A stretch of 15,538 nucleotides of DNA, filler included, from an uncultured Methanosarcinales archaeon (GTDB taxonomy: Archaea > Nanobdellota > Nanobdellia > Woesearchaeales > CAYPCY01), in NCBI GenBank assembly GCA_964409385.1. It is 3 parts of 3 records of this genome, joined end to end, with 100 filler letters (N's around TTAATTAATTAA, not from the genome) between each part and the next. Parts side by side here need not be neighbours in the genome. Positions count along the whole stretch, not along the records: positions 7,316 to 12,263 come from CAYPCY010000012.1; positions 12,364 to 15,538 come from CAYPCY010000014.1; 1 more part is not named here. One strand, 5' to 3'. Made by a program: the position numbers and the translations under genes. Shown here piece after piece: positions 1 through 15,538 of this stretch; positions within the stretch are counted from its first letter, which is position 1; each line of letters begins with the position of its first letter. The notes below the pieces were generated by a model, which made no database searches, was not told where the DNA came from, and worked only from the letters and a program-made list of their open reading frames with translations.

Positions 1-112
1 TATATATGTGATAACATTATAATAATATTAAGATAATGTTGTTGAGGTGTTATTATGAGCAAGAAAATGGAAGGAACAAAACCACTACAAGTTTACGTTC
101 CAGAAGAAATAT

Positions 113-577
113 ATGAATATCTTTAATGGACCACCCTATTATGAATCTTGGACTAAACAAGAATCTCTTGATGAATTACTTAGAAGTTCAAGAAAAGAAG
201 GCTTCATATGTGTTTTTGCAGAGAAAGAAGAAGACATAATAGGATTCTCTTGGGGATATAAACTTCCAGAAAATAATCTTGAAAGAATAGCTTTTGAAAA
301 GATAAGAAATAAACTTGAGGAGAACAAAATTAATCCTAACAAAACATTTTATGGTGCAGAAAGTGGAGTTAGAATTGATTTAAGAAAGAAAGGAATAGGC
401 ACTTTAATGTTGAGAAAAAGATTTGCTGCCTGCAAGGATTTTAATACTGTAATATTCAGAACGAAAAATCCTACAATGATTAATATATATAGAAAAGTAG
501 CAGGAAAGAAAGAAAAACTATCTTTCTTAGAAGAAAGTTCTTATGAAGGAGGAAGAGTCTATGTCTTTAATACTTAA
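113..577 (+). CDS. GNAT-family N-acetyltransferase (N-terminus possibly truncated)
   Basis: F-x-x-PP-Y-x-E-x-W start, IIGFSWGY strand, acetyl-CoA motif A-like V-R-x-x-x-RKKGIGT, and a later N...Y motif. Confidence 0.75.
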   Translation: MNIFNGPPYYESWTKQESLDELLRSSRKEGFICVFAEKEEDIIGFSWGYKLPENNLERIAFEKIRNKLEENKINPNKTFYGAESGVRIDLRKKGIGTLMLRKRFAACKDFNTVIFRTKNPTMINIYRKVAGKKEKLSFLEESSYEGGRVYVFNT

Positions 578-598
578 TTTTTTTATTTTTTTATTTTT
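578..598 (+). terminator. Oligo-T archaeal terminator
   Basis: TTTTTTTATTTTTTTATTTTT immediately after the GNAT stop codon. Confidence 0.5.
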
Positions 599-670
599 AA
601 CAAATTATATAAACAAAAGAATGCGAAGCATTCTGAGCTTCAGAAAACAAAAAAGCAAGAGGTTTAATAA

Positions 671-1933: not shown

Positions 1934-2483
1934 AAGAAATCTTACTAATATTATCTGCAGCTCCATATATTGAATTATCAACCAGACTTTTCAAGCTAGG
2001 AGACATACATGGTTTTTTAGTCTTAAAGCTATATAAAGCTCTTGCGGCAATCAGAGTAATTGTCGCTCCAATGTATCCTAGACCAATAATGTCTGGATTA
2101 TCTGAAAATAATTCTGCAGTTTGATTAAGATTTAATGTTTCTGAAGCCTTAACTAGTAATGGAGCAATACCATATTTGAATCCTGGTTCTAGGATTGCTT
2201 TGAACTCTGTAGTTAAAAATATTGGTGACCAAAAATATATACTATTATTTGTTAGTGAGCGATTAGGAATATTAAAATAATTAGTTATTTTTTCTTGTCT
2301 TTTTCCTGTAAGATCTCCTGCCAATAAAGATAAACCAACAATACCCATATTATATTTTATTCTTTCTTTTAATATTTTTGAATCTTTATAAGTCTCAATA
2401 GAATTCATAGAATATTCAAAAAATTTATTTCTTAAACCACCAGGTTTAATTGCTAATTCATCAACAACTTCTTCAAGATTCAT
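1911..2483 (-). CDS. Hypothetical, probably membrane-associated protein
   Basis: 190-aa ORF overlapping the map stop by 4 nt (translational coupling); hydrophobic segments such as IIGLGYIGATITLIAA. Confidence 0.7.
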   Translation of the reverse strand: MNLEEVVDELAIKPGGLRNKFFEYSMNSIETYKDSKILKERIKYNMGIVGLSLLAGDLTGKRQEKITNYFNIPNRSLTNNSIYFWSPIFLTTEFKAILEPGFKYGIAPLLVKASETLNLNQTAELFSDNPDIIGLGYIGATITLIAARALYSFKTKKPCMSPSLKSLVDNSIYGAADNISKISFKKSLFS

Positions 2484-3364
2484 TTTGTAGTTACTATCGT
2501 TTTATCAAGAACTAACATTGTGTGTTCTCTTTGAGAAACTAAACCATTGTTAACATCAGGTAGTGGGGGGTGTTCTCTTAACACTCCTAATTGTTTTAAT
2601 TCTCTGAATGCGAAAGCTAATTCGGCCTTTTTGAACTTTTTTTCTAGCCATCTGTAAGCAAATGGTAAATTATCAAACTTTAAAATTTCATTAAGAACTT
2701 TTCTTGTAAATAAACCACGAACAGGTTTTTTAGATATTAGTGCAAAAATTGTGGCTTTTCCTTCTTCCTTAATTAATCCTGCTCCAGAACTTGCGAATGG
2801 TTCTATAGCTATAGTCATTCCCTCTTCTAAAACTGTAGTGTCTCCATTATCAAAGTTTGGAATTGAAGGACTTTTATGAACAATGAATCTTCCAATTCCA
2901 TGGCCGCACAAGTTTCTTACTGGCTTAAAACCGTGAGATTCTATAGTTTCTTGAATTGTTTTTCCTATTTCTCTAACTTGAACTCCTGGCTTTACTAGTT
3001 TTATTGCATTATTTAATGCTTCTTCAGAAGCTCTCAATAATTTTTCATTACCTCCCAGATCAATACTTTGGGCAGTGTCTGCAATATAACCGTTTATGTG
3101 AACGCCAATATCAACTTTTATCAAATCATTTTCTTTGAAGAAAACTTCTTCTTCATAAGTGGGACAATAATGAGCAGCAATATTATTTCTAGAAATTTGC
3201 ATTGGAAATGCTGGTTTTCCACCTAATTCTTCTATTTTCTTTTCTACTTTGTCGGCAACTTCAGAAAGTAAAACTCCTGGTTTAACCAGAGAAATAGCAT
3301 AAGTTCTTACTTCTTTAGCTATTTTTCCTGCTTTAATAAAATCTTCTTTTATTTCAGGAGTCAT
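2480..3364 (-). CDS. map: Methionine aminopeptidase type II
   Basis: AFP...AAHY, KVDIGVHINGYIADTA, NLCGHGI, AIEPF, QREHT metal ligands plus the type-II helical insert. Confidence 0.97.
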   Translation of the reverse strand: MTPEIKEDFIKAGKIAKEVRTYAISLVKPGVLLSEVADKVEKKIEELGGKPAFPMQISRNNIAAHYCPTYEEEVFFKENDLIKVDIGVHINGYIADTAQSIDLGGNEKLLRASEEALNNAIKLVKPGVQVREIGKTIQETIESHGFKPVRNLCGHGIGRFIVHKSPSIPNFDNGDTTVLEEGMTIAIEPFASSGAGLIKEEGKATIFALISKKPVRGLFTRKVLNEILKFDNLPFAYRWLEKKFKKAELAFAFRELKQLGVLREHPPLPDVNNGLVSQREHTMLVLDKTIVTTK

Positions 3365-3387
3365 TTTTTAAATTATCATTATGATTT

Positions 3388-3416
3388 ATTTAAAACTATC
3401 CCCTAAAGATTTAAAA
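3388..3416. promoter_or_regulatory. Back-to-back TATA boxes for map (-) and the deoxynucleoside kinase (+)
   Basis: ATTTAAAA at 3388-3395 and 3409-3416, each 24-31 nt from the ATGs at 3364 and 3440, consistent with leaderless transcripts. Confidence 0.55.
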
Positions 3417-3439
3417 CTTTGTTATGTTTTATATTTATT

Positions 3440-4060
3440 ATGAGCAAATTTATTGCATTAGCTGGAAATATTGCTTCTGGGAAAACTACGGCTGCAAGAC
3501 TTATAAGACAGGAGTTTGATTATGAACTTTTTGAAGAGCCAGTAATTGATAACAGATTTTTAGGGGATTATTATACTGATATGAATAGATGGTCTTTCAC
3601 ATTACAATTAGAATTTTTGATTAATAGATTTGAACACCATAAATTAATAGAGACTATTGATAAACATTGTGTCCAGGATAGAACATTAATTGAAGATGCA
3701 GGAATTTTTGCTAAATACTTACATTCTACTGGTAAAATGAATGATAAAGAATATTCTTTATACTTGGATTATTTCAGTCATTTTAATGCGCAAGTTAAAC
3801 AACCAGACAGAATTATTTATTTAGAAATTAAAGATGAAAATATTTTACTTGATAGAATTCTTAATAAGAGAAAAAGAAAGGAAGAAGCTAATATTACTGT
3901 TAATTTCTTAAAAGGTCTTAATAGTTTATATAATATTTTTCCTCAAATTGCTCAAGAAAAATATGGAATTCCAGTTACTACAATAAATTATGAACATATT
4001 AATATTAAACAAGAACAAGGCAAACGAAAATTTCTTAATTTGATTGAAAGAATTATCTAA
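3440..4060 (+). CDS. Deoxynucleoside kinase (dNK family)
   Basis: P-loop GNIASGKTT, EPV, YY-x-D-x-x-RW, Q-x-x-FL-x-x-R, QDR, PD-x-IIYL, R-x-R-x-x-E; start placed at ATG 3440 rather than TTG 3419 from TATA spacing. Confidence 0.93.
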   Translation: MSKFIALAGNIASGKTTAARLIRQEFDYELFEEPVIDNRFLGDYYTDMNRWSFTLQLEFLINRFEHHKLIETIDKHCVQDRTLIEDAGIFAKYLHSTGKMNDKEYSLYLDYFSHFNAQVKQPDRIIYLEIKDENILLDRILNKRKRKEEANITVNFLKGLNSLYNIFPQIAQEKYGIPVTTINYEHINIKQEQGKRKFLNLIERII

Positions 4061-4131
4061 TTGCTACAAATACAGTTAGTAAGAATGTTAAAGCTGTAAA
4101 TACATAAAATATTAATTCGTCGATCTTCATT

Positions 4132-4641
4132 TTAGTAGATTATTCCTACAAGAACTCTTTCTATTTGTTCAAATCTTATTTTTTCAGGATCATTACTTAA
4201 GTTATTATCTCCTTTAGCAATGAAGTATATTCCATTATCATCATGTCCTATTTCTGCAATTCTGTGAATTACTATTCCTGTAACGTATGAAGATTTGTAA
4301 GATATAATATCTCCAACTTGTAAGTCGCTTGCTTTTTCAGGAGTTATTTGAATGGCATTAGCACCTTCATCTAAGAATGGAACCATACTATTAGTATTTG
4401 CAAACTTAGCCCATTGAGGATCGTTGATTTCGATTATAATTCTGTCTGAGAATACTTTTATTTGTGATTCTTTAATCCTGTCTTTAGGCATTTGAATTTC
4501 AGAATTTGATTTTAATCCTATGAATTCGAATGGTTTTTCTAGAGCGGATACTGAGTAAAAATTTCCTAGTAATATTCCTATTAGAAAGGTTGTTATCAAC
4601 CAAGAAAATCTTGAAAATATGTTTGTTTTTACCACTTTCAA
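4132..4641 (-). CDS. Signal peptidase I (peptidase S26, archaeal Sec11/SipW type)
   Basis: N-terminal TM segment, catalytic SM-x-P, GDII, IHR, KGDNN...DP; TTG start. Confidence 0.88.
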   Translation of the reverse strand: MKVVKTNIFSRFSWLITTFLIGILLGNFYSVSALEKPFEFIGLKSNSEIQMPKDRIKESQIKVFSDRIIIEINDPQWAKFANTNSMVPFLDEGANAIQITPEKASDLQVGDIISYKSSYVTGIVIHRIAEIGHDDNGIYFIAKGDNNLSNDPEKIRFEQIERVLVGIIY

Positions 4642-4740
4642 GTAATAATATGTAGAATTCTATTTAAAAAGGTTTCGGTTCTCTTGTGCTTAAACCCTTA
4701 TTAAAATAAGAATAAACTAATATTTTTAGAATTTATTTTA

Positions 4741-5484
4741 TCAATCGTTTTCTACTCTTGGAGCAAGAATGAATTCCATACTAACCCTATCTGGAGTCAC
4801 ATAGTCTAATTTTAAAGGATAATCACGACTAAATTTTATTGAAACTCTATCAGCAAGTTTAGAAGCTTGCATCATCTTTTTCAAATATTCAATAGAATAT
4901 TTAGAACTTATATTATCTTCAGAATTAACAAGAACTTTAGTAAAATCATTAGCTTCCAAATCAACATGTGCTTTACTTAAGTCTCCCTCGCCTGAAATTG
5001 CAAACTTACTATTAGAAGCAATTAAAGAAACCGCTTCGGCAACAATATCACAATCCTCAACAGCATTATTTAATACTGAAGATTCAGTTTCTATAGTAGC
5101 AACAAAATTCAAACTAGGAACCTTTTGTTCCTTATCATCAATCTCTAATAAAGGAATATGAAAACTCCTAGTAGAAGAACCCTTTAAAGTAATTTTTAAC
5201 TTATTATCTAAAGTTTCTAAAGTTAAAGTGTCTGTTGGATTTACCCTTCTAAGAACTTGTTTCAAATTTGAAAGGTTAAGACATAAATCAGAAGAATCAT
5301 CAACTTGATATTCTAGAAATGCTGAAGGCAATAACTTAAAAACTACCATCGCGACATTTGCAGGATCCATAGCTACAAGCTCTAAACCATTAGAACTAAC
5401 AGTAAATTTAGCTTCATTAACTATGTCCGAAATTATACTTATTGAATCTTTAAGATATTTAGGTTCTGCAAGTGTCAACTTCAT
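4741..5484 (-). CDS. pcn: PCNA sliding clamp
   Basis: AMDPANVAMV, LNLSNLKQVL, SKYSIEYL, DYPL, FILAPR; 247 aa; GGGGGT SD-like site and TTTATAAA (5520-5527) upstream. Confidence 0.98.
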   Translation of the reverse strand: MKLTLAEPKYLKDSISIISDIVNEAKFTVSSNGLELVAMDPANVAMVVFKLLPSAFLEYQVDDSSDLCLNLSNLKQVLRRVNPTDTLTLETLDNKLKITLKGSSTRSFHIPLLEIDDKEQKVPSLNFVATIETESSVLNNAVEDCDIVAEAVSLIASNSKFAISGEGDLSKAHVDLEANDFTKVLVNSEDNISSKYSIEYLKKMMQASKLADRVSIKFSRDYPLKLDYVTPDRVSMEFILAPRVEND

Positions 5485-5536
5485 GATAATACCCCCGAAT
5501 ACTATTGAATAGTTAGAAATTTATAAAGTTATGGGG

Positions 5537-6703
5537 TTATCTTCTTAACAAGTAAGCATCCTTAATGATTTTCAGAACAAAATTTAAATCTTTTTCTTCA
5601 ACTCTATGCCTCAATTCTAACCTTGCAGAAGCTTTAGAAAGTCTAATTATTGCTTTAACAAGTCTAGGGCTTACTTCTCTAAGAATATGTTCTTCTTGTT
5701 CTTTAAGTTCTTGAATAAAATCTACAACTTTTTCCTTTAAGGATTCAGGAAATGAAACTTTTAATGCATCTGCATAGTCAACATATTCCTTCAAGAAACT
5801 AATATCTTCAACACCATATTTTTGTTTTTTAGAAGCAATATGTTTTGTTATTTCCTTGAATTCTTTTAGAGAAGGTTTTCTAACAACAAACATTAAATGA
5901 AATCTTGAAAGTAATGCTTCATCAAAAGGCAATTGAGTTTTAGTAATATTTGTTCCTTTACCGACGAATCTATCTCCTTTAGGATTTGCTGTGGCTAAAA
6001 CCCTAACTCTTGTATTAAGTCTCTTATGAGTTTTGCCCTTATTATAAGTTATGAATCCTTTCTCCATAGCATTCAATAATGAAGCATGATCTTTTTTCAT
6101 CATTAAATTTAATTCGTCAATGCAACAAATTCCTTTGTCTGCCTTAACTAATAATCCTGGAATGAATTCTTTGCCTTTTGTAGTTCCAGTAAGACCAACC
6201 CCTGAAACTCCAGAACCAAGACCAAATTGAGAGTTTGGAGAAATTTCTTCAACAGCCCTTAACACTTCAGTCTTTCCAGTTCCAGGATCTCCAATAATTA
6301 GTAAATGAACAGTATCTTTACTAAATAATAATAGTGAAGCTGCTTTTATTATATCCTTATAACCTTTCAAATTTCTTCCTAAGAACTTTGATATTTCTGT
6401 TTTTGCTTGTTCAGAAAATCTTTGATATGCTTTCTTTTCAGCAGAATATAAGACTTTTCTATTAATATCATCAATTATGTTTTTTATTTCTATATCAGTC
6501 ACTATTGGTGAAAATTGTGGAAAAGAACCTAGCTTAAACTGAGTGTTTAGACTAGTCATAAAAGTTCCAACCACATTTAATTTCATTAGTTTTTTTACTT
6601 TCTTAAGATTGAAATCACTAAGAAATCTTGAAAATAGTTTTAATTGTCTTTTCTTTCTTGAAGATAATGGAATCAAATATCTTGCAGTTCTAAATAAGTT
6701 CAT
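5537..6703 (-). CDS. MCM-family AAA+ ATPase lacking the canonical N-terminal domains
   Basis: Walker A GDPGTGKT, GSGVSGVGLT, GLLVKADKGICCIDE (Walker B), NAME, ATANP, arginine finger LLSRF, sensor-2 SPR...RLSKASARL; only 388 aa. Confidence 0.88.
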   Translation of the reverse strand: MNLFRTARYLIPLSSRKKRQLKLFSRFLSDFNLKKVKKLMKLNVVGTFMTSLNTQFKLGSFPQFSPIVTDIEIKNIIDDINRKVLYSAEKKAYQRFSEQAKTEISKFLGRNLKGYKDIIKAASLLLFSKDTVHLLIIGDPGTGKTEVLRAVEEISPNSQFGLGSGVSGVGLTGTTKGKEFIPGLLVKADKGICCIDELNLMMKKDHASLLNAMEKGFITYNKGKTHKRLNTRVRVLATANPKGDRFVGKGTNITKTQLPFDEALLSRFHLMFVVRKPSLKEFKEITKHIASKKQKYGVEDISFLKEYVDYADALKVSFPESLKEKVVDFIQELKEQEEHILREVSPRLVKAIIRLSKASARLELRHRVEEKDLNFVLKIIKDAYLLRR

Positions 6704-6774
6704 TTTATTGTAAATGAATAACTAGTTTATATTTTTTTAGTAATTGTTAAAAACAGGTTTTACTTTCTTTCATT

Positions 6775-7215
6775 ATGAAATTTGCTCATATGGCTGATTT
6801 GCACATAGGAAGTTGGAGAGATCCTAAATTAAGAAATGCTAGTACTGTGGCTTTTGAAAGGGCTATTAATTCTTGTATTGATGAAAAAGTTGATTTTATA
6901 TTGTTTTCTGGAGATTTGTTTAATACTACACTTCCTGGCATTGATAATCTGAAAAGAGTTGTTAAGAAGTTGAAGAGTTTAGTAAAATCAAGAATTCCTG
7001 TTTATGTAGTTCCTGGAAGTCACGATTATTCTCCTTCTGGAAAGACAATGATTGATGTTCTTGAAGAGGCTGGATTGTTAATTAATGTTTTTAAGGGAAA
7101 AGTTGATGGAAAGAAATTATGTTTGGAATTTACTAAGGATGATTCTGGAGCTTTAATTACTGGAATTATTGGTAGGAAAGGAATGTTAGATCAAGAATAT
7201 TATGAAGATTTAGAA
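6775..7215 (+). CDS. mre11: Mre11/SbcD-family nuclease, 5' part (cut by contig end)
   Basis: Phosphoesterase motifs HMADLHIG, SGDLF and PGSHD. Confidence 0.88.
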
Positions 7216-7315
7216 NNNNNNNNNNNNNNNNNNNNNNNNNNNNNNNNNNNNNNNNNNNNTTAATTAATTAANNNNNNNNNNNNNNNNNNNNNNNNNNNNN
7301 NNNNNNNNNNNNNNN
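7216..7315. other. Artificial contig linker
   Basis: N44-TTAATTAATTAA-N44, a six-frame stop spacer. Confidence 0.99.
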
Positions 7316-7664
<349 letters not shown>

Positions 7665-7877
7665 TATTTACTTATCCTTATTGATTAGTACGTAAACTTT
7701 TAAGAAATTGTGTTGCATCAAACATTCCTACCAATACTTGAGATTATTCAAGCATCTTTTGTGAACCTAATGGTTGTTTGAAGGTCAAAAAACATTGTTT
7801 TTGGTACTCCAAAACAAAGAATGTTTTGTGAAAACGTACGAACGCACAAATGTGCAGATTTTGTGAACAATAAGCGA

Positions 7878-7885
7878 TTTATAAA
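7878..7885 (-). promoter_or_regulatory. Probable TATA box of the 16S rRNA promoter
   Basis: TTTATAAA about 215 nt upstream of the mature 16S 5' end, followed by a structured leader. Confidence 0.55.
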
Positions 7886-7890
7886 GATTG

Positions 7891-7992
7891 TTATTTCTGT
7901 GATCTTTTTCTCTTTTCTTTTTTCATTTTTTTACGTTGCCATTTCCAACGCATTTGTCCTTTCTTCTTCCATCTCTTAGAACTTCTTTTCAT
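7891..7992 (-). CDS. rpl41e: Ribosomal protein eL41/eS32 (33 aa; absent from the ORF track)
   Basis: Manual translation MKRSSKRWKKKGQMRWKWQRKKMKKEKRKRSQK*, with the archaeal L41e pattern WKKKG-x-MRWKW; TATA-like box at 8016-8024. Confidence 0.92.
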   Translation of the reverse strand: MKRSSKRWKKKGQMRWKWQRKKMKKEKRKRSQK

Positions 7993-8043
7993 TAAAAAAA
8001 ACAGAAAAAGGATTGATTTAAAAAACTTTTGAATTTTAAAAAA

Positions 8044-8295
8044 TTAAATTTTTCCTTTGCAATTTTTCGGAAGATCATCACACGGAATATGACTTTTACA
8101 AATTTTGTTTAAACAACAATACTCAGTGGTTTCAAAATCATTACAAATTATTATTACTGGCTCTTCTATTGTTTTAGTTCCAGAGCCTACTAAGTCATTA
8201 GGATTATAAGTGAATATAACTAAAGTCAGAATTAATGCAATTCCTAAACCTCCTATTATCTTATCGGCTTTTATTGCAGATTGGATATTATCCAT
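8044..8295 (-). CDS. Small membrane-anchored Cys-rich protein
   Basis: TM segment IIGGLGIALILTLVIFTY then 6 Cys; TATA-like box at 8317-8326. Confidence 0.7.
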   Translation of the reverse strand: MDNIQSAIKADKIIGGLGIALILTLVIFTYNPNDLVGSGTKTIEEPVIIICNDFETTEYCCLNKICKSHIPCDDLPKNCKGKI

Positions 8296-8442
8296 TATTA
8301 TTTTTTTATTTTTTGATTATATATAATTTTTGATTTAAATATTCTTTTTAATAATAGAATTTCACAATTCCTGATAATATAAAACAAAATAGTATGCTTG
8401 ACAGAATGTCAACATACCTTCGTGGACATGGCGGAAAATGTA

Positions 8443-8459
8443 TGCAGAGGCCGGGATTC
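8443..8459 (-). repeat. Direct repeat of the tRNA-Gly 3' end (att-like scar)
   Basis: GAATCCCGGCCTCTGCA versus GAATCCCGGCCATTGCA at 8539-8555 (15/17 identical). Confidence 0.8.
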
Positions 8460-8538
8460 ACAACAGAATCAAGATTCTGAGGTTACAAAATCAAAAAAAG
8501 ATTTTAAACAACAATGTTCGAATCGATTAATTTAGAAC

Positions 8539-8609
8539 TGCAATGGCCGGGATTCGAACCCGGATTACCACCGTGGCAGGGTGATGTCCTACCATTAGAC
8601 TACCACTGC
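8539..8609 (-). tRNA. tRNA-Gly(GCC), intronless, CCA not encoded
   Basis: GCAGTGG/CCATTGC acceptor stem, D-arm, TCACC-CTGCCAC-GGTGG anticodon arm, CCGGG-TTCGAAT-CCCGG T-arm, discriminator A. Confidence 0.97.
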
Positions 8610-8876
8610 TTATTTTTTGTTAGGTACCTTATTAGTTTTTATAATATTGCCGCAGGTGCATTTTACCGGGAAGTTTTCGGTGAATAACGGTTTTGAACAT
8701 TCATCGCATTGGATGCCGTAAACTTTAACTTCATTATCATCTTCTGACAAGTAATCAAATATACTGTCTGCAAAACAGTCCATGCAAATATTTAACATTT
8801 TATCCTTGTAAATATATGGTAGGATTGCTGAATCATTACTTGAGGCTTCACAAAAGTTACAGTTTGTTTTCATCAC
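8610..8876 (-). CDS. Small double zinc-finger/ribbon protein
   Basis: CNFC...CMDC and CDEC...CTC; overlaps the argS stop by 4 nt (ATGA). Confidence 0.8.
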   Translation of the reverse strand: MMKTNCNFCEASSNDSAILPYIYKDKMLNICMDCFADSIFDYLSEDDNEVKVYGIQCDECSKPLFTENFPVKCTCGNIIKTNKVPNKK

Positions 8877-10531
8877 ATTTCCTCCGGTGCTTTAATTCCG
8901 AGTAATCCAAGTCCATTTTTAAGTGTTTGTCTTACACAATCAACTAGTAATAATCTTGATTTCATAATACTTGTTTTTTCAGAGATTACTGGGCATTTAT
9001 GATAAAATTCGTTAAATGATTGGGCTAGACTTATTAAATAATTAGCTGTATGGTGTGGTTTGTAAGATGTTGATGTTTTAACTAGTGTTTCTTTGAATTG
9101 ATTTAATAATTTCAATAGTTCCTTTTCTTCCTTTAATGAATAGTTTAATTCTTTTGTTGAAATTCCCTGTTCTGCCTTTCTTAATATTGATGCTGCCCTT
9201 GCATGAGTGTATTGTAAGTAAGGAGCTGTCTCTCCTTCAAAAGATAACATTCTATCCCAGTCAAAATCAATATTTTTTATTCTGTCATTGCTCAAGTCTG
9301 AGAATATTATTGCTCCAACACCAACTTGCTTTGCTACTTCTTGCTTGTTTTTTAGTTTAGGGTTTTTTTTCTCTATAATCTTACTCGCTAATTTTATTGA
9401 CTTGTTTAATACTTCTTCAAGGAAGATAACATTTCCTTTTCTTGTTGACATTTTTCCTTCTGGAAATTTGAAAAGGCCAAAGTCAATATGTTCTAGCTTG
9501 TCTTTAATACCATATTTATTTAGTACTAAAAATAGTTGTTCAAAATGTAGTTTATGTTCAGAACCAACAGTGTATAACACTTTATACGGCTTGTAAGTTT
9601 CTAGTCTGTAGAATGCCGCGGCTAAGTCTCTAGTATGATAAGTTGATGATTTATTGCTCTTAATTAATATTAATGGTGGCATATTATGTTTTTTCAAATT
9701 CACTACTAATGCATTCTCAGACATTTCAGTTTTAACTTTCTTTTCTAGTTTCTTAATTGCTTTTTGCATCTTATTATTATAGAATGATTCACCATGTTGA
9801 GAATCGAATTCAACATCTAAAATTCCGTAGATTCTATGAAATTCTTCAAGGCTTAATTCCTTGAATAACTCCCATAATTTTATTGATTGTTTATTATTAT
9901 CTTCTAGTTTCTTAAATTCTGTTCTTGCTTGTTCTTGAAGTTCCTTGTTTTTTTCTAATTCTTTATGAAATTTAACATATAATTTTAGTAAGTATTTTAT
10001 TGGGTCTTTTTCTAAAATCTTTTTATTACCCCACTTATTATAAGCAACTATTAACTTACCAAATTGAGTTCCCCAATCTCCTAAGTGATTAACGCTTATT
10101 ACTTGATAGTTTAGAATGTTGAATACTTTTGCCAGAGAAGTTCCAATAACTGTACTTCTTAAATGACCAACACCAAATGGTTTTGCAATATTTGGAGATG
10201 AGAATTCAAGAACTATCTTCTTCTTTTTACCAATGTTTTGCTTTCCGAACTTATCCTTATCCACCATTATTTCTTTAAGAATATTTGTTAAATGACTTAT
10301 TTTTAGGAAGAAATTAAGATAAGATCCTTTAACCTCTATCTTTTCAATGTTTTTCTTGTAATAAATTGTTGTTTTGATCTTTTTTGCGATAGTGTTAGGA
10401 TCCTTCTTTAATTTAAAACAAGGCAGGGCTAAATCCCCCAGATTATTCTTTGGAGTTTCAAAATCTTCAGGCTTTGTTTTATACTTTAACTTATTTAGTT
10501 CTTTAGAAAGTTCTTCTTTAAATTCTTGCAT
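8873..10531 (-). CDS. argS: Arginyl-tRNA synthetase
   Basis: EFSSPNIAKPFGVGHLRS, NHLGDWGTQFG, GES, Y-x-TRDLAA, KMSTRKG, YLQYTHAR, FYHKCPV, LGI-x-APEEM. Confidence 0.98.
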   Translation of the reverse strand: MQEFKEELSKELNKLKYKTKPEDFETPKNNLGDLALPCFKLKKDPNTIAKKIKTTIYYKKNIEKIEVKGSYLNFFLKISHLTNILKEIMVDKDKFGKQNIGKKKKIVLEFSSPNIAKPFGVGHLRSTVIGTSLAKVFNILNYQVISVNHLGDWGTQFGKLIVAYNKWGNKKILEKDPIKYLLKLYVKFHKELEKNKELQEQARTEFKKLEDNNKQSIKLWELFKELSLEEFHRIYGILDVEFDSQHGESFYNNKMQKAIKKLEKKVKTEMSENALVVNLKKHNMPPLILIKSNKSSTYHTRDLAAAFYRLETYKPYKVLYTVGSEHKLHFEQLFLVLNKYGIKDKLEHIDFGLFKFPEGKMSTRKGNVIFLEEVLNKSIKLASKIIEKKNPKLKNKQEVAKQVGVGAIIFSDLSNDRIKNIDFDWDRMLSFEGETAPYLQYTHARAASILRKAEQGISTKELNYSLKEEKELLKLLNQFKETLVKTSTSYKPHHTANYLISLAQSFNEFYHKCPVISEKTSIMKSRLLLVDCVRQTLKNGLGLLGIKAPEEM

Positions 10532-10567
10532 TTTATTAATAGTTGAAGAATTAATTAATAAACTTTT

Positions 10568-10864
10568 TTAATTTTCTTGTGATAAATCAGTATATAATTT
10601 GTAAGCTTTTAATTGAGCCCTGTTAAGATCCTGATTAAAACCATCTAGAACATTATAGAATTCAGATGTTTTAGACAAGTTCTTATTTTGTCTATAAATT
10701 AAGTTTTTAGAATTGCTTGTTAATCTGTCTACTTCACAAAGTTTATTCATAGCATAATCCTTAGAAAAACCATGACCATTCGCCAACTCTTCAAGATTAG
10801 AATCTACTTCTTCTAAATTACTTGAAATTTTATTCGTTAATTTTCTAAAATTTTGGAAATCCAT
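10568..10864 (-). CDS. Hypothetical helical protein
   Basis: 98-aa ATG ORF filling the intergenic space, co-oriented with argS. Confidence 0.65.
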   Translation of the reverse strand: MDFQNFRKLTNKISSNLEEVDSNLEELANGHGFSKDYAMNKLCEVDRLTSNSKNLIYRQNKNLSKTSEFYNVLDGFNQDLNRAQLKAYKLYTDLSQEN

Positions 10865-10973
10865 TCTTGAAGGGAATGTGAAGGTGAATATAAATGTAAC
10901 TCTTCAGAATGAAAAATTTTTATTGAATTCTTCTATTCAAAAAGTTTATATTATTCAATGCATTCTTGTTATT

Positions 10974-11171
10974 ATGAGCTTGACAGACTTGTTGATTAAT
11001 ATTCCTTGGAGAATGGTTAGACAAAGAAGAAGATTAACTTCTCAAAAAAATATTGAATTATACATGTTATCTTGTGGTAATGATAAGAAAGAATATTTTG
11101 TTTCTAAAATGGACGAGTTAAAAAGACAATATTGGGATGTTTCAACATATGAAGAGTATGTGAAAGAGTAA
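10974..11171 (+). CDS. Hypothetical protein (65 aa)
   Basis: Lies within track ORF 10878-11171; ATG 10974 preferred because TTTATA at 10945-10950 sits at promoter distance. Confidence 0.55.
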   Translation: MSLTDLLINIPWRMVRQRRRLTSQKNIELYMLSCGNDKKEYFVSKMDELKRQYWDVSTYEEYVKE

Positions 11172-11327
11172 TTAGTTTGATGGTGAAATTATTATGTAAG
11201 CATTCTTGCTGAAGTCGTATTCATTAACTGAAATATCATCTTCAATACTCAAGTTTAAAATAATATCAGGATTTAAATGTTATGTATTTAGTTAGCTTTT
11301 TATATTCATTCTATTACTTCTTAAAAT

Positions 11328-11471
11328 ATGGGAAGAAAAACCAAACGAAGAACATTCTTGAAATCAGGAAAGGTTAAAGGATACAAAAAAAGAATAAGTA
11401 ATTCCAGAAATGCACAAAGAAGAATAAAAGATAAATTCTTCATGGACCTAAAAGCAAAAGACAAAGAATAA
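11328..11471 (+). CDS. Small highly basic protein (47 aa; absent from the ORF track)
   Basis: MGRKTKRRTFLKSGKVKGYKKRISNSRNAQRRIKDKFFMDLKAKDKE*; TTTTTATA at 11297-11304. Confidence 0.65.
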   Translation: MGRKTKRRTFLKSGKVKGYKKRISNSRNAQRRIKDKFFMDLKAKDKE

Positions 11472-11479
11472 TTTACTAG

Positions 11480-11878
11480 TTACTCATCATTAAAAATAGT
11501 ACCATTAAAAGAATTTCTCTTAACATCATAATCATACATTTTGAATCTTTTACTATATGTTTTAAATGTTTTAGAAGGAATATCCTTACTATGCATAATT
11601 AGTTCGTTCCAAGTAGTTTTAAAAACACTAAATACTACACTTTTTAACCTTCTTAATTCCTTTTGATACTTTCTAAATTCACCCATTAATAACCGTTCAT
11701 TAGCTAATTTAAACTTTAAAGAAGAATACTCACCATACAATTTATCTGCAATATCAAAATTATTATTTATTGCTTTAAGTTTATCCTCTAAAGACATATT
11801 CTCCCTATATTTTTTTTCTCTTTCCAGTTTATGTCTATTATAACTATCAATTATAGACTCATCCCTATAATGTTTCAT
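11480..11878 (-). CDS. Hypothetical basic coiled-coil protein
   Basis: 132-aa ORF with a TATA-like box about 25 nt upstream. Confidence 0.65.
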   Translation of the reverse strand: MKHYRDESIIDSYNRHKLEREKKYRENMSLEDKLKAINNNFDIADKLYGEYSSLKFKLANERLLMGEFRKYQKELRRLKSVVFSVFKTTWNELIMHSKDIPSKTFKTYSKRFKMYDYDVKRNSFNGTIFNDE

Positions 11879-11912
11879 ACTATAAGAATAATAAATACAA
11901 TTAAAAACTTAA

Positions 11913-12203
11913 CTAATCAACTCTAGATTCTAAATCAGAAAATTTAAATCCCCTCTTAACACCCTTAACTAAATATTGATGTATTCTATAATCACTATAA
12001 GAATCAAACTCTCTCTTTATAGCTAAAGACTCATAATAATCACTAACAGACTCAAAACCCTTAGAAAAAACAACAATATTCCTTCTTGAAGTGTTATATT
12101 CTTTAGCTAATGTTTTTTGTGTATAAACCCTCTTTCCACTATCATCCCTTAAAGCATACTTAAACCGAATTTCATCTCTAACCACTTTTGAAAATTTAGG
12201 CAT
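11913..12203 (-). CDS. Small HTH-like DNA-binding protein
   Basis: YTQKTLAKEYNTSRRNI resembles an HTH; internal repeat GFESVSDY/EFDSYSDY; TTTAAAAA at 12226-12233. Confidence 0.6.
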   Translation of the reverse strand: MPKFSKVVRDEIRFKYALRDDSGKRVYTQKTLAKEYNTSRRNIVVFSKGFESVSDYYESLAIKREFDSYSDYRIHQYLVKGVKRGFKFSDLESRVD

Positions 12204-12208
12204 GCCAA

Positions 12209-12418
12209 ATATTATCTTTCATAAGTTTAAAAAGATTACTTAAAAGAATAAATGCTCCGTACGNNNNNNNNNNNNNNNNNNNNNNNNNNNNNNNNNNNNN
12301 NNNNNNNTTAATTAATTAANNNNNNNNNNNNNNNNNNNNNNNNNNNNNNNNNNNNNNNNNNNNATATTATCTTTCATAAGTTTAAAAAGATTACTTAAAA
12401 GAATAAATGCTCCGTACG
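12209..12418. other. 55-nt exact contig overlap (12209-12263 = 12364-12418) around an artificial linker (12264-12363)
   Basis: Identical ATATTATC...TGCTCCGTACG on both sides of N44-TTAATTAATTAA-N44; the length matches a k=55 assembly-graph overlap. Confidence 0.95.
12408..12418 (-). repeat. Putative att site: tRNA 3'-end fragment
   Basis: Minus strand CGT-ACGGAGC-A fits T-stem end, acceptor 3' strand and discriminator of a GCTCCGT-starting tRNA; followed by T-rich TTTATTCTTTT. Confidence 0.55.
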
Positions 12419-12495
12419 AGCAAAGGGTGTTTTTGTAAAAATTCCCATTCGTTGAATTTCCTTTATTTTCTTGTGATATTCTTAATGAATCTGAT

Positions 12496-13383
12496 TTATT
12501 TATCTTCTATTATTTCTTGTGTGAATTCTTTTTCATACTGGTGTAATCTTCCATATCTATGAATAAACTCTTTATTTAATTTTTCTATTAATTCCTTATC
12601 TTTTGATACTAACTCATTTTGTATTTCTCTTGTTTTCTCTTTTTGTTCTTTCTGTAACTCTTTATATTTTTCTTCATCTATTGATTTCTTTTCAAACTTT
12701 AAAGCATTCTTCTTATCAAACCATAACCTCATTATTGAAGATTTAAATATTCCTGTCATACTAAATGCTCCAGTCATTTCAGCAATAAACATTAATTCAT
12801 GAAAGAAGTTCTGAACTTCTTTTTCAAACTCTTCTCTTTCTTTTTTATTACTTATCAACTTAATTATTTCTTCAGTTGGTTCTTCCACATCAATGTCGTA
12901 GAATGCCATATCAAGCAATGAAACATTTATTGTATCACTAAAGGATTTAAACAAGCCTTCAAGTGTTGTTGGTGGCTTATCTAAAGGAGTGAATAAAGTT
13001 GATTGACTCATTAATTTAACTAAGAATTCTCCAAATAATGCAGTTCTTTTCTTCTTGAATAAGTTACCAGAATTAAAGAATTCAGGATTTCTTTCTTCGA
13101 TTGTGAGCTTATACTCTTCTTTAAACCATTTCCAGAATATTGAAGTTAGTTTATCTCCGTTTATTTTGTATCTTTTAGTATTATGTTGATTCGCCTTCCT
13201 TAGTTTAATTCTTTGAATAAAGCCTTTACCTTCTAAAATTAGTAATTGCTTGTGAGTGTTTGGAGTCTTCTTATCTATTATTTTAGAGATTCCTTCAGCA
13301 TAAGCCTTCTTTGGTTCATCAGCTATTGCTACTAAAATCCTGTAATAAACTTTATTCTTTGGTATTTCAATAAAATGTTTCAT
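12496..13383 (-). CDS. Winged-HTH transcriptional regulator (repressor-like) with C-terminal helical domain
   Basis: YRILVAIA...YAEGISKIIDKKTPNTHKQLLILEGKGFI...KRYKIN wHTH pattern; SD AGAGGAG at 13389-13395. Confidence 0.75.
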   Translation of the reverse strand: MKHFIEIPKNKVYYRILVAIADEPKKAYAEGISKIIDKKTPNTHKQLLILEGKGFIQRIKLRKANQHNTKRYKINGDKLTSIFWKWFKEEYKLTIEERNPEFFNSGNLFKKKRTALFGEFLVKLMSQSTLFTPLDKPPTTLEGLFKSFSDTINVSLLDMAFYDIDVEEPTEEIIKLISNKKEREEFEKEVQNFFHELMFIAEMTGAFSMTGIFKSSIMRLWFDKKNALKFEKKSIDEEKYKELQKEQKEKTREIQNELVSKDKELIEKLNKEFIHRYGRLHQYEKEFTQEIIEDK

Positions 13384-13417
13384 TAGTTCTCCTCTGTAGT
13401 ATTATATTATTGCCTGT

Positions 13418-13470
13418 TATTATCATAATAGTTCTAATTTATAAATATTTCCCCAATATTACACTTTAAG
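13418..13470. promoter_or_regulatory. Divergent promoter region with candidate operator
   Basis: Palindrome TATTAT-C-ATAATA at 13418-13430, TTTATAAA at 13438-13445, TTTAAG near 13465-13470. Confidence 0.45.
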
Positions 13471-13511
13471 ACCTAACATATAATAGTATTGAGGGGTTTT
13501 GGAGTAAAAAA

Positions 13512-13655
13512 ATGAGAAAAAGGTTAAGAGATAACTTATCTAAAGAAGACGAATTTCTACAAGCTTATGCTGAACTAATGAAAACATTCAAAGACATTAC
13601 TGATTCTGCTCAGGTTTCACAAGAAAAAGAAAAGGGTAATGAGAGAAATGATTGA
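13512..13655 (+). CDS. Small hypothetical protein (47 aa; absent from the ORF track)
   Basis: MRKRLRDNLSKEDEFLQAYAELMKTFKDITDSAQVSQEKEKGNERND*; GGAG at 13501-13504; ATGATTGA overlap with the next gene. Confidence 0.65.
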   Translation: MRKRLRDNLSKEDEFLQAYAELMKTFKDITDSAQVSQEKEKGNERND

Positions 13656-13836
13656 ATCTAAACCTGAACAAGCCTTCTGCAGTTGGAAAGATGAGACCGA
13701 CTCTATTCACAGCACTTATGTAACTCTCCTGAAAGTAACTGAGAGGTATGTCGAGATAGAAACTAAATCTTCAATAATTATTATTCCTATGCATAGGCTA
13801 CTCAAACTTAAGAGGAAAATACAAAATGGCCAGTAA
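13648..13836 (+). CDS. Small beta-barrel protein, possibly Sm/LSm-like
   Basis: Beta-rich LLKVTERYVEIETKSSIIIIPMHRLLKLK resembles an Sm2-type pattern; start 13648 or 13639. Confidence 0.55.
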   Translation: MIESKPEQAFCSWKDETDSIHSTYVTLLKVTERYVEIETKSSIIIIPMHRLLKLKRKIQNGQ

Positions 13837-14764
13837 AAAAAATAAGAATCTAATAATAGATAAATTTTGGAAGAAACATAATGTTACTAGCAAAAAAACT
13901 CTAATCCTTAAGAAAGATTTTTTGGGTATGTTAAATGAACTACCATTATCTGAAGAGCCAGATTATAGAAGAGCAGTTACTAAGCATAGAATAGGAGAAG
14001 TTTTACTTATCTTAGCAAGATTTCCAGGGCTTCCTTTCATAAAAATAAAAGAGTTAACTGGTCATTACAATGTTATTTTAAACAGATTATTAAGACAACT
14101 CAGCCCTTATATTACAATAGTTAATCCAAAAAATCCTGAAGTAAAGGATATTCATAAAGTATTAACTCAAATAAATCCGTCTACAAAAAGTCATTATGGC
14201 CGTTATTATATCCTAAACCTTAATGCAAAACTTGCAATGAATAAGGTTAGCAATAATTTTAAAGAACAAATAACCGAAGTAGCAAGTCCTTATCTTCTAC
14301 AAAATATTGAATTGTTAAAGCAAGAGTTAGAAGCTAAGGCAGAAGAAATTAGAACTGCAACATTAACTCAAAGAATGGCGTTGATTAAGAAAGAAATTTC
14401 TTCAAAGCCAGAAAGGTTTGAAGCATTACTAAAGCTTCAGCTCGTGAAAGGACTAAAAATTACACGGGAAGAGCTGAAGCTTATCTTGCAAACTTCTGAG
14501 ATTCTTTCAGTAACTGCGAGGGATTCAACAGTTAAAAAATGGATTTCATTCGCAATTAGTCATAAATGGTTAAGGCCACAGTATGATAAACCAATGACTC
14601 CCTATATATTAAATAAACAGAAACTTTTATTTCCCAACGAAAAAGAGCCAGAGCCAAAGCCAAAGCCAGAACCGAAACAACTAACGGCTGAAGAGGAGGC
14701 TGATTTAATTCTTGGAGCAGTACCATCTAATGAGGTTGAAAATGAGAAAGAAAAAAAGAAATAA
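13826..14764 (+). CDS. Putative DNA-binding protein with two wHTH-like regions, a coiled coil and a Pro/Glu/Lys tail
   Basis: IGEVLLILARFPGLPFIKIKELTG...LNRLLRQL; ITREELKLIL...DSTVKKWI...KWL; EPEPKPKPEP; overlaps both neighbours. Confidence 0.65.
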   Translation: MASKKNKNLIIDKFWKKHNVTSKKTLILKKDFLGMLNELPLSEEPDYRRAVTKHRIGEVLLILARFPGLPFIKIKELTGHYNVILNRLLRQLSPYITIVNPKNPEVKDIHKVLTQINPSTKSHYGRYYILNLNAKLAMNKVSNNFKEQITEVASPYLLQNIELLKQELEAKAEEIRTATLTQRMALIKKEISSKPERFEALLKLQLVKGLKITREELKLILQTSEILSVTARDSTVKKWISFAISHKWLRPQYDKPMTPYILNKQKLLFPNEKEPEPKPKPEPKQLTAEEEADLILGAVPSNEVENEKEKKK

Positions 14765-14981
14765 TAAAAATAAAAATAATATTATTACTGAAGGTGTTAT
14801 AGTTAATAATCATGAATTATCAAGACTTGCTCTTGGCTTTAGTGATGTAGTTTCTGGAGTTACAATTAGAGATGTGAATATCGAATCAAAGGGAGTGGAT
14901 AGTAAAGACTGCAAGAACGGATTCAATTATATTGTTAAGCAATATCTAAAATTAAAAAATGAAGAGGAGAAGAATGAGTAA
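14742..14981 (+). CDS. Hypothetical protein
   Basis: GAGGT at 14732-14736 favours ATG 14742; ATGAGTAA overlap with the next ORF. Confidence 0.65.
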   Translation: MRKKKRNNKNKNNIITEGVIVNNHELSRLALGFSDVVSGVTIRDVNIESKGVDSKDCKNGFNYIVKQYLKLKNEEEKNE

Positions 14982-15462
14982 GTTTGAAGATACTGAAACC
15001 ACTAATTTCTCTTACGGAAAGGAAGGAATATCATTCAAAGATATAATACTGAATCACTTGAAGAGAATTAGTGAATTCTCCAGTGTTGAATTTAGGGGTG
15101 GTTACTGGGAAGAGAAGCAGATTCATCTTGGTAGTGGAAATTTCCAGACGGAAAGAACTTATGTTCCAGATTCCAGAGAAATTTATACTAATGCAGTTGA
15201 TGTCTTGGCAGACTTGTTATATCCTCATTTTGATAGTGAGATGAAGAAAGCAGAAGAATACTTACTTGAAGAATGGCGTGTTTGGACTGATGCTCATTCT
15301 GATGAAAAAGGATTCATTACTGATGAAAAAGGAAAAATAACTAATGAAGCAGTTCAGATTCAACGAAATAAAAAACGAGGAAATAGGAAACTACTCTTCA
15401 GACAAATTTGTTGTTTCCTTTATAGAAAGAAATACTTGGACATGGGAAGTATAGAAAACTAA
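14974..15462 (+). CDS. Hypothetical protein
   Basis: GAGGAG at 14964-14969 favours ATG 14974; globular-looking sequence with EFRGGYW and YVPDSRE. Confidence 0.8.
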   Translation: MSKFEDTETTNFSYGKEGISFKDIILNHLKRISEFSSVEFRGGYWEEKQIHLGSGNFQTERTYVPDSREIYTNAVDVLADLLYPHFDSEMKKAEEYLLEEWRVWTDAHSDEKGFITDEKGKITNEAVQIQRNKKRGNRKLLFRQICCFLYRKKYLDMGSIEN

Positions 15463-15538
15463 ATGGTATTTACGACAGAAAGAAAGGATAAGAAAGTGAA
15501 ATACTGGATTGAGTATATACTAAGTAGGATTAAAAAAA
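15463..15538 (+). CDS. 5' fragment of the next operon gene (runs off the window)
   Basis: TAA-ATG junction; MVFTTERKDKKVKYWIEYILSRIKK is open to the window edge. Confidence 0.6.
   Translation, partial: MVFTTERKDKKVKYWIEYILSRIKK

Follow-up and report, generated by a model that had tools for sequence, protein, structure and literature searches.

Switches in which a repressor gene and an early operon diverge occur in temperate viruses and plasmids. Archaea terminate transcription at oligo-T, and hairpins followed by oligo-T, resembling intrinsic terminators, also occur. Wu, Liu and Ni (2024) reportedly described viruses and mobile elements of DPANN archaea from metagenomes. In the parts of the published reports available to us, viruses and elements of DPANN archaea are identified from hallmarks (capsid, ATPase or spike) or with the help of CRISPR spacers (PMC12647753; bioRxiv 10.1101/2025.02.15.638363). 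The available part of a further report describes Charybdis, circular marine elements of approximately 4.6 kb with no hallmark genes, which integrate into Poseidoniales (bioRxiv 10.1101/2025.08.03.668216).

The locus described here lies in a window of 15,538 nt (the whole stretch of DNA that was analysed) from an archaeal draft genome. The original prediction, a provirus or integrative element inserted at a tRNA gene in an ultrasmall archaeon, would have been a rare find whose att site was known. As first stated this fails, the "att" being a hairpin at a contig joint. The explanation that we prefer, with a probability of roughly 0.5, combines an assembly joint, a terminator-like hairpin and an accessory, probably mobile, gene cluster with its control module.

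The contig joint and its host side

Two TTAATTAATTAA linkers, flanked by four runs of 44 N in all, interrupt the window, which is therefore three contigs that have been joined artificially: A (1-7215), B (7316-12263) and C (12364-15538). The features discussed below are collected in Table 1.

Table 1. Features of the window around and beyond the joint between contigs B and C.
Feature	Position	Strand	Remarks
Artificial contig linkers, N44 + TTAATTAATTAA + N44	7216-7315 and 12264-12363	.	the two are identical
Small uncharacterised ORFs	10568-12203	-	98 aa, 10568-10864; 132 aa, 11480-11878; 96 aa, 11913-12203
Contig B end, 55 nt	12209-12263	.	ends in TGCTCCGTACG; equals contig C start; k = 55 assembly-graph overlap
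Contig C start, 55 nt	12364-12418	.	duplicate of 12209-12263; holds part of the hairpin and, for the 96-aa gene, the TATA-like promoter region
Terminator-like element (predicted)	12398-12422	-	TGCTC-GTACG-GAGCA, 12422 to 12408, then TTTATTCTTT, 12407 to 12398; the 11-mer is the loop and 3' arm
295-aa protein, near-ORFan	12496-13383	-	putative N-terminal winged-helix DNA-binding domain; helical, charged C-terminal part
Divergent control region, 128 nt	13384-13511	.	TATA-like TTTATAAA at 13438; Shine-Dalgarno-like motifs on both sides
47-aa ORF	13512-13655	+	first operon gene; no family match
65-aa ORF	13639-13836	+	no family match; 17-nt overlap with the 47-aa ORF
312-aa ORFan	13826-14764	+	mostly helical; Pro/Glu/Lys-rich tail; weak HTH hint at residues 28-101
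79-aa ORF	14742-14981	+	89 aa from TTG 14712; basic N-terminus; no family match
162-aa protein	14974-15462	+	167 aa from ATG 14959; conserved unnamed family
Seventh ORF	15463-15538	+	abuts the previous stop; the contig end cuts it off after 25 codons

Contig B ends in the same 55 nt with which contig C begins (an exact identity; blastn E = 2.5e-24, with no further similarity between the ends), and this is the sole overlap in 27 end-to-end comparisons. The value k = 55 is a common assembler setting. The identity is a de Bruijn assembly overlap, and the duplicate is an artefact. The GC-rich 11-mer on which the original prediction was built ends contig B (12253-12263), the right edge of the plus-strand copy being the contig end, and occurs again inside the overlap (12408-12418). 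It follows that the two copies are purely an assembly duplicate, and that the boundary flagged at this position is an assembly joint and no biological junction. The exact 11-mer is not expected by chance (0 in 200 shuffles of the window), but because its second copy is artefactual there is no real repeat to explain. A search of the assembled sequence, which reaches only one end of the cluster, for a direct repeat that could serve as an att core found a second motif copy only within the 55-nt overlap. As a lesson of method, where contigs are concatenated into one window, k-mer overlaps give rise to spurious repeats and boundaries.

The archaeal origin of the sequence is indicated by a 16S fragment scoring 309.8 bits against the archaeal SSU model, by PCNA and by an MCM domain. 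Contig B, which the overlap ties to C, carries the 16S fragment, a tRNA-Gly and ArgRS (8873-10531). ArgRS is the last recognisable host gene, and uncharacterised ORFs already begin at 10568. The host genes had been said to end at the motif, but the boundary between host and uncharacterised genes lies at about 10.55 kb, not 12.4 kb. The ORFs on the supposed host side of the motif (10568-12203) are as uncharacterised as those of contig C, which means that the motif separates nothing. This region also holds a 615-nt stretch with no convincing gene, and the 96-aa ORF at its end gives a weak hint of a Tfx-type HTH. It may belong to the same accessory region as contig C.

The joint itself bears on a further reading, namely that C is a free small replicon (a plasmid or virus) binned with the archaeon and touching B through about 55 shared nt, for example at a recombination site. 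C is indeed a separate contig, complete as assembled (its 3175 bp being the size stored for the contig of its own 162-aa protein), and a four-way vertex at the shared 55 nt would give exactly such an identity of suffix and prefix. Against this, the shared stretch holds the TATA-like promoter region of contig B's 96-aa gene and completes a coherent terminator-promoter intergenic region, as simple contiguity predicts, and B and C are adjacent in the record with matching orientation. Moreover, a protein identical to the 295-aa one is found on two contigs, the longest of 7099 bp, and the 312-aa protein is known in an 88-aa end fragment; together these would fit an independent contig that extends leftwards over the joint. 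The free replicon is an improbable reading. In our preferred explanation, the draft genome of a low-GC archaeon has had two of its contigs concatenated, with the GC-rich motif at the edge of their overlap; the break between them would suggest more than one continuation of the reads, through population heterogeneity or a repeat, which would be compatible with a variable island, although no alternative branch at the 55-mer was observed.

The GC-rich motif as a hairpin

The 11-nt motif and its T-tract were correctly described: on the minus strand CGTACGGAGCA is followed by TTTATTCTTT. The full GC-rich element is longer, at 15 nt (12408-12422), with a 5-bp stem (three of the pairs G-C) around a 5-nt loop, and the 11-mer was an incomplete view of it. 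The hairpin and the 295-aa gene share a strand, the hairpin lying some 73 nt past the stop codon. It folds alone at -6.8 kcal/mol and also forms when the whole intergenic RNA is folded to its MFE structure. Between 12364 and 13600 it is the only terminator-like site (1 against 0.1 ± 0.3 in shuffles). Over the whole window such sites are mildly enriched (11 against 6.2 ± 2.5), many of them being intragenic. A stem of 5 bp is weak. As a predicted GC-rich stem-loop with a T-run downstream of a same-strand gene, the element can be classed as intrinsic-terminator-like. Once the duplicate is collapsed, hairpin and T-tract lie past the 295-aa stop codon and immediately ahead of the 96-aa gene's TATA-like box, and the most economical function for the hairpin would be as a transcription stop or insulator between these two co-directional genes.

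The original prediction instead took CGTACGGAGCA to be the duplicated 3' end of a tRNA gene, the att site of a tyrosine-integrase provirus. The end of the motif could perhaps be read as an acceptor 3' strand with discriminator, and the assembly graph branches exactly at the motif edge, as an insertion-polymorphic site would. Duplication of a tRNA 3' end does occur in this genome, at 8443-8459, 3.9 kb from the motif. However, ARAGORN finds no tRNA at the junction, either by default or, on the collapsed B + C sequence, with -ps80, and Infernal, run over 7316-15538 at E <= 1, likewise detects no piece of a tRNA at this place. By ARAGORN the window has a single tRNA, Gly-GCC at 8539-8609, with a 3' end unlike the motif. 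Inspection by eye reveals no T-arm in the minus-strand sequence that precedes the motif. What would pair with the supposed acceptor strand is found only 5 nt away, in the mini-hairpin. With the second copy an assembly duplicate, uncharacterised ORFs on both flanks and no integrase in the visible sequence, a provirus at a tRNA att site is not supported and we regard it as very unlikely.

Genes of contig C and the 162-residue family

The original prediction described a run of six overlapping or abutting plus-strand ORFs diverging from a regulator gene, and the coordinates confirm it. The overlaps are of 17, 11, 23 and 8 nt, with one exact abutment. Neither the 295-aa gene nor any of the plus-strand ORFs has a significant family match. 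Shine-Dalgarno-like motifs precede five of the seven genes of contig C, against 2 of 12 host genes and none of three at the end of contig B (Fisher p = 0.045 and 0.014). Position inside an operon accounts for part of this contrast.

The 295-aa protein is probably a winged-helix regulator, as judged from its sequence. At E <= 1e-3 its relatives amount to 2 of 3948 candidates, these being itself and one protein of 71% identity. Residues 7-75 give only sub-threshold matches, to the Csa3 HTH (E = 0.055), CasR (E = 2.3e-3) and CARF3 (E = 1.9e-3). Language-model look-alikes are archaeal hypothetical proteins (0.93, with 175 shared features), followed by IclR, MarR and PenR HTH clusters (0.86-0.89). 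It would presumably bind the 128-nt region and set expression of the operon, as the layout suggests. A palindrome in this region, TATTAT-C-ATAATA at 13418-13430, is at chance level (1 against 0.5 ± 0.9 in shuffles). The 312-aa protein has a single match among 1.84e9 representatives, the 88-aa fragment noted above, which is 100% identical. It shows a weak match to phrog_12817 (E = 7e-3), and its structure model has a pLDDT of 41 and is unusable.

The family of the 162-aa protein comprises 44 clusters at 36-83% identity from several metagenome data sources. Structure prediction gives, with confidence, a helix, a long β-hairpin and three long helices. Foldseek returned no match at E <= 1e-3 for this predicted fold in PDB or BFVD, the best being a non-significant one to a small-terminase oligomerisation domain (E = 0.15, probability 0.54-0.60). 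None of the 44 family members matches PHROGs. The longest contigs of the family (43 values, taken for family members alone) have a median of 3.4 kb and a maximum of 13.3 kb; they reach 7 kb in 10 cases of 43 and 15 kb in none, and the largest values are mostly about 9 to 10.6 kb. A scan of 185,579 species-representative genomes, using two search patterns that catch 43 of the 44 known members, gave no confirmed relative. The family is conserved and unnamed, with a novel-looking predicted fold, known from short contigs only, and the overlap ties one member to a fragment of an archaeal chromosome. Should the short contigs be complete small replicons, the window would give the family a host.

These data can be weighed against the view that contig C holds ordinary lineage-specific chromosomal genes, that is, a native regulator and operon at a trivial assembly break, with the short contigs explained by rare organisms assembling poorly. 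In metagenomes most contigs are short anyway, and fast-evolving archaea with small genomes carry many orphan genes. The homologues of the neighbouring 96-aa ORF are likewise on short contigs only (553-4414 bp), and the overlap ties C to the contig with ArgRS, tRNA-Gly and 16S. The composition of C cannot be distinguished from that of the host contigs (delta* of 45.6 for A against C, 56.3 within A), and its codon-usage distances at gene level fall within the host range, with GC3 slightly higher (0.245 against 0.182). On the other hand, for all its spread the family has no confirmed member in the representative genomes, all of its 43 longest contigs fall short of 15 kb, and the two large neighbouring proteins are essentially without relatives. 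We consider this view rather doubtful, though the absence of mobile-element hallmark genes speaks for it. The size distribution of the contigs and the absence from representative genomes are also what a free replicon would give.

Possible accessory or mobile character, and comparison with known systems

Pfam, PHROGs, NCBIfam and PADLOC reveal no integrase among the ORFs of 10568-15538, contig C being only 3.2 kb long. The visible sequence contains no transposase, Rep, capsid or packaging ATPase gene, the contig C proteins show no significant match to a virion or packaging hallmark (major capsid protein, packaging ATPase/terminase, portal or spike), and phage and plasmid collections gave no match. 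The proposed provirus or element retains an accessory, possibly mobile look, in its near-ORFans, short-contig family and divergent layout, but neither contig C nor 10568-12203 offers an integrase or viral hallmark. Since two of the proteins are near-ORFans and the 162-aa family is missing from the genomes scanned, the ORFs do not behave as syntenic core genes of related genomes, and on this point the original prediction holds.

Two further observations point the same way. Identical copies of the 96-aa protein are present on five contigs (the longest 16,992), while the 295-aa protein is on the two already mentioned and the 162-aa protein on one, which implies that the B side is more often assembled, or more often present, than the contig C side. 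The lack of relatives of the 295-aa and 312-aa proteins implies quick gene turnover around a conserved 162-aa gene. It is plausible that contig C is a fragment of an accessory or mobile element. In our preferred explanation C, probably together with the ORFs of 10568-12203, would be an accessory and probably mobile gene cluster, perhaps part of a small element of roughly 9-13 kb, or such an element in integrated form. The visible part would be its control module, with the winged-helix gene diverging from at least six small overlapping genes across the 128-nt TATA-like region. More tentatively, and with a good deal less confidence, C, perhaps with 10568-12203, could be the control end of an integrated, undescribed archaeal element or virus family of about 9-13 kb that has no known hallmarks and is marked by a conserved protein of 160-180 aa. 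If this is true, the physical link to the contig bearing 16S, tRNA-Gly and ArgRS would assign a host to the orphan 162-aa family for the first time.

Among known systems, intrinsic and oligo-T terminators resemble the hairpin in their GC-rich stem (5 bp here), 5-nt loop and directly adjoining T-rich run, placed after a stop codon and ahead of the following promoter, but the present candidate has a short stem, and similar consensus matches occur inside genes of the window. The repressor/early-operon switches of temperate viruses and plasmids likewise set an HTH gene opposite a packed operon, with a short AT-rich control region in between, whereas here there are no operator repeats beyond chance and the DNA-binding regulator is a predicted one. 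The tRNA-targeting archaeal integrase elements and proviruses, as far as the available part of a survey describes them (PMC13573593), share the block of small uncharacterised genes, the divergent regulator and the housekeeping neighbours; the present cluster differs in having no integrase, site tRNA or true direct repeat, with one end visible. DPANN elements, from the available parts of the reports (PMC12647753; bioRxiv 10.1101/2025.02.15.638363), have a possibly similar host type, a small low-GC archaeon, and genes that mostly resist annotation. The cluster is set beside them by description, and differs in carrying no such hallmarks and in having a host shown as archaeal only. Charybdis differs in size, the contigs here reaching 13.3 kb, and is likened on the description in the available part of the report, as a parallel rather than as a matter of membership. 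The concept is the same: a family of small elements whose only definition is a cohesive set of hypothetical genes, and whose members turn up on small contigs and now and then integrated in an archaeal genome (bioRxiv 10.1101/2025.08.03.668216).

The boundary and its repeated motif

The boundary at which a provirus inserted in a tRNA was originally predicted (12408–15538), and the repeat found there, are products of assembly and concatenation. In a reading of 12000–15538 the run of N is broken by TTAATTAATTAA, and a script run over the window found four runs of exactly 44 N (7216–7259, 7272–7315, 12264–12307 and 12320–12363), which form two 100-nt linkers. The window therefore consists of three contigs, A (1–7215), B (7316–12263, 4948 nt) and C (12364–15538, 3175 nt). 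When the contig ends were compared in all orientations, an exact 55-nt overlap from B to C was the only one among 27 suffix/prefix comparisons. It was recovered by blastn of the contig ends (E = 2.5e-24), and neither comparison found any further similarity between ends. An exact overlap of 55 nt is the pattern that de Bruijn assemblers leave between graph-adjacent contigs, k = 55 being a common assembler setting. The 162-aa protein of contig C is recorded on one contig of 3175 bp, the size of contig C, and the window therefore ends at a contig end.

The second artificial linker is at 7216–7315. Contig A breaks off before it, inside a metallophosphoesterase gene, and contig B begins after it, within a 16S rRNA gene (model positions 1–353), so that the neighbourhood of A and B in the window is not biological adjacency.

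The GC-rich motif TGCTCCGTACG is found at 12253–12263, as the last bases of contig B, and at 12408–12418, as the last bases of the 55-mer in contig C; both are the same sequence, represented twice. The minus strand continues past the motif with TTTATTCTTT. The 11-nt motif and T-tract originally described are thus present, but the motif as given is incomplete, as it runs 4 nt further 5' on the minus strand. From 12422 to 12408 this strand reads TGCTC-GTACG-GAGCA, a 5-bp stem with a 5-nt loop, in which the supposed acceptor strand pairs with its complement five bases away. The hairpin is the sole terminator-like site in 12364–13600 (1, against 0.1 ± 0.3 in shuffles), and the intergenic RNA also forms it in its predicted minimum-energy fold. 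It shares its strand with the 295-aa gene, whose stop codon lies about 73 nt upstream. Once the duplicate is collapsed, a TTTTTAAA box comes next, about 25 nt ahead of the ATG of the 96-aa gene. A transcription unit that ends here, with a leaderless start of the next one behind it, would be expected to show this layout. The functional call is a modest one, because terminator-like consensus sites are only mildly enriched window-wide (11, against 6.2 ± 2.5) and several of them lie inside genes. The motif itself amounts to a hairpin and T-tract at an unremarkable intergenic site.

ARAGORN identifies one tRNA in the window, Gly-GCC. Rfam at gathering thresholds identifies the tRNA-Gly and a 16S fragment, and at E ≤ 1 on 7316–15538 gives the three matches listed in the table. 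On the collapsed B+C sequence ARAGORN calls no tRNA at the junction, at either its default or a lowered threshold; the latter yielded 7 extra low-scoring calls, all elsewhere. The proposal that the motif is an att site, a duplicated tRNA 3' end, fails each test that could be run: neither ARAGORN nor Rfam places a tRNA at the junction, the motif is a hairpin, and the repeat is the overlap of two contigs.

Contig B does contain a 17-nt copy of the 3' end of tRNA-Gly (T-loop, T-stem, acceptor and discriminator), with 15 of the 17 positions identical. Nothing else in the window matches in this way, 200 shuffles give an expectation of 0, and the site has no tRNA call. A tandem tRNA that has decayed may be one explanation, an old integration into tRNA-Gly that left its footprint another. 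The original prediction sought a signal of this kind, yet it is 3.9 kb away, and it sits just 79 nt downstream of the tRNA.

Features of the three contigs
Feature	Position	Strand	Remarks
Contig A genes			Pfam: GNAT acetyltransferase, HisRS, M24 peptidase, deoxynucleoside kinase, PCNA, MCM AAA+ domain protein, metallophosphoesterase
PCNA gene	4741–5484		
388-aa MCM gene	5537–6703	minus	
16S 5' end	7316–7664	minus	Rfam, E ≤ 1; archaeal model, 309.8 bits
tRNA-Gly 3'-end copy	8443–8459	minus	
tRNA-Gly (GCC)	8539–8609	minus	ARAGORN; Rfam, E ≤ 1
sRNA match, sub-threshold	overlaps tRNA-Gly		Rfam, E ≤ 1
ArgRS gene (contig B)	8873–10531		Pfam
Gap between 98-aa and 132-aa ORFs	10865–11479		615 nt
295-aa gene	12496–13383	minus	
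Divergent control region	13384–13511		128 nt; TATA-like TTTATAAA at 13438
ORFs of 47, 65, 312, 79 and 162 aa		plus	then a seventh, broken off by the contig end
Tandem duplication in 162-aa gene	15299–15340		21-nt unit

Gene content on either side of the joint

Host-type genes were originally said to stop at the motif. This is not the case, as unmatched ORFs of 98, 132 and 96 aa are already present on the "host" side. Nothing significant is found in Pfam, PHROGs, NCBIfam or PADLOC anywhere in 10568–15538, these three ORFs included, and the motif therefore does not part known from unknown genes. The gap that separates the ORFs of 98 and 132 aa has no convincing gene. Its only ORFs, none with a Pfam or Rfam match, are one of 97 aa with a GTG start and an overlapping pair of 47 aa, of which one is extremely basic.

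Among the host genes, the 388-aa MCM protein has only the MCM P-loop domain (residues 101–291) and the MCM lid (303–382). A recognisable MCM N-terminal domain is missing, and none of the adjoining genes could supply it. The gene, which adjoins that of PCNA, either encodes a "mini-MCM" or is truncated or misannotated.

A test for a compositional island was negative, with a dinucleotide distance of 45.6 between contigs A and C, below the 56.3 that separates one half of A from the other. In codon usage, the individual contig C genes stay at distances within the host range, and GC3 is 0.245 in contig C against 0.182 in the host. The Shine-Dalgarno-like motifs GGAG or GAGG are found upstream of 5 of the 7 genes on contig C, among them the first gene on each side of the divergent pair, against 2/12 host genes and 0/3 genes at the end of contig B (Fisher p = 0.045 and 0.014). 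The contig C cluster may thus have a different style of translation initiation, with gene position explaining part of the contrast, because both of the motif-bearing host genes are operon-internal. The plus-strand ORFs of contig C meet at junctions of −17, −11, −23, −8 and 0 nt. An operator search of the divergent control region gave a single 6-1-6 palindrome, no more than chance.

The proteins of contig C

At E ≤ 1e-3 the 295-aa protein matches 2 proteins among 3948 candidates, namely itself and one relative at 71% identity, and the identical protein is found on 2 contigs, the longest being 7099 bp. A look-alike search returned archaeal hypothetical clusters at 0.93 (175 shared features) and HTH families at 0.86–0.89, the latter fitting the sub-threshold HTH matches over residues 7–75. 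For the 312-aa protein, the 1.84 billion representatives searched contain 1 match, an 88-aa fragment 100% identical to its N-terminus. Its single-sequence AlphaFold model is unusable (pLDDT 41), and a fibritin match (E = 0.023) was attributed to coiled-coil composition. The two proteins are not detectable as paralogs (best E = 1.1). No match was found in phage or plasmid collections by tblastn or blastn for either of them, for the 162-aa protein (167 aa from an alternative start) or for contig C DNA. On the contig B side, the 96-aa protein is itself found on 5 contigs (longest 16,992 bp), with 5 clusters of relatives at 59–78% identity on contigs of 553–4414 bp.

The 162-aa protein belongs to a family of 44 clusters (among 76 candidates), at 36–83% identity to the query, from Logan, ENA, JGI, TARA and NCBI. 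The alignment contains 12 invariant columns, with column identity averaging 49%. Across the 43 longest-contig values the median is 3.4 kb and the maximum 13.3 kb; 10 are at least 7 kb and none at least 15 kb, the largest being mostly about 9 to 10.6 kb. A profile-guided scan of 185,579 species-representative genomes produced 210 pattern matches, none of them confirmed as a relative; the two patterns used recover 43 of the 44 known members.

The clusters carry neither names nor Pfam domains, and no family library provides a name. None of the 44 members has a PHROG match, the family profile has no match among PDB sequences, and ESM Atlas gave no usable match. Pfam CNDH2_N, matched by 6 of the 44 (best E = 3.3e-4), was set aside as compositional or a weak lead. 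AlphaFold2, run on the 44-sequence alignment, generated a confident model (mean pLDDT 82, pTM 0.73), with a predicted fold consisting of a helix (21–36), a long β-hairpin (44–64) and three further helices (67–85, 88–108 and 124–151). Foldseek of this model gave 0 matches at E ≤ 1e-3 in PDB and BFVD. The best hits, which may be regarded as leads only, were the SPP1-like small terminase oligomerisation domain (E = 0.15, probability 0.54–0.60) and a protein of an "uncultured archaeal virus", itself uncharacterised (E = 0.28, probability 0.84, TM 0.40/0.53). The tandem duplication inside the gene (81% identity) encodes a repeated SDEKG/TDEKG, which falls in a variable acidic linker, where the protein in the window most departs from its family.

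Possible mobility of contig C

On this sequence evidence it is plausible that contig C is accessory or mobile. Its gene content is orphan, its conserved family is limited to short contigs and missing from all the representative genomes, more contigs carry the contig B side than the contig C side, and there is a graph break at its edge. Against this, contig C shows no hallmark gene, and its composition does not stand out from that of the host contigs. Two observations would favour real contiguity of B and C: a 7099-bp contig carries the identical 295-aa protein, and there is an 88-aa fragment from the end of the 312-aa protein. Together they would fit an independent contig that ends near 14089 and extends leftwards over the junction into and through contig B.

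Metagenomic viruses of DPANN archaea are no longer a rarity in the literature. A survey of proviruses counts 770 in archaea and cites the seven DPANN viral families of Wu et al. 2024 (PMC13573593), DPANN viruses from acid mine drainage are described as largely lytic (PMC12647753), and the nanohaloarchaeal viruses described include head-tailed, icosahedral, pleomorphic and spindle-shaped ones (bioRxiv 10.1101/2025.02.15.638363). For small archaeal elements that lack hallmark genes, a precedent is provided by the Charybdis elements (bioRxiv 10.1101/2025.08.03.668216).
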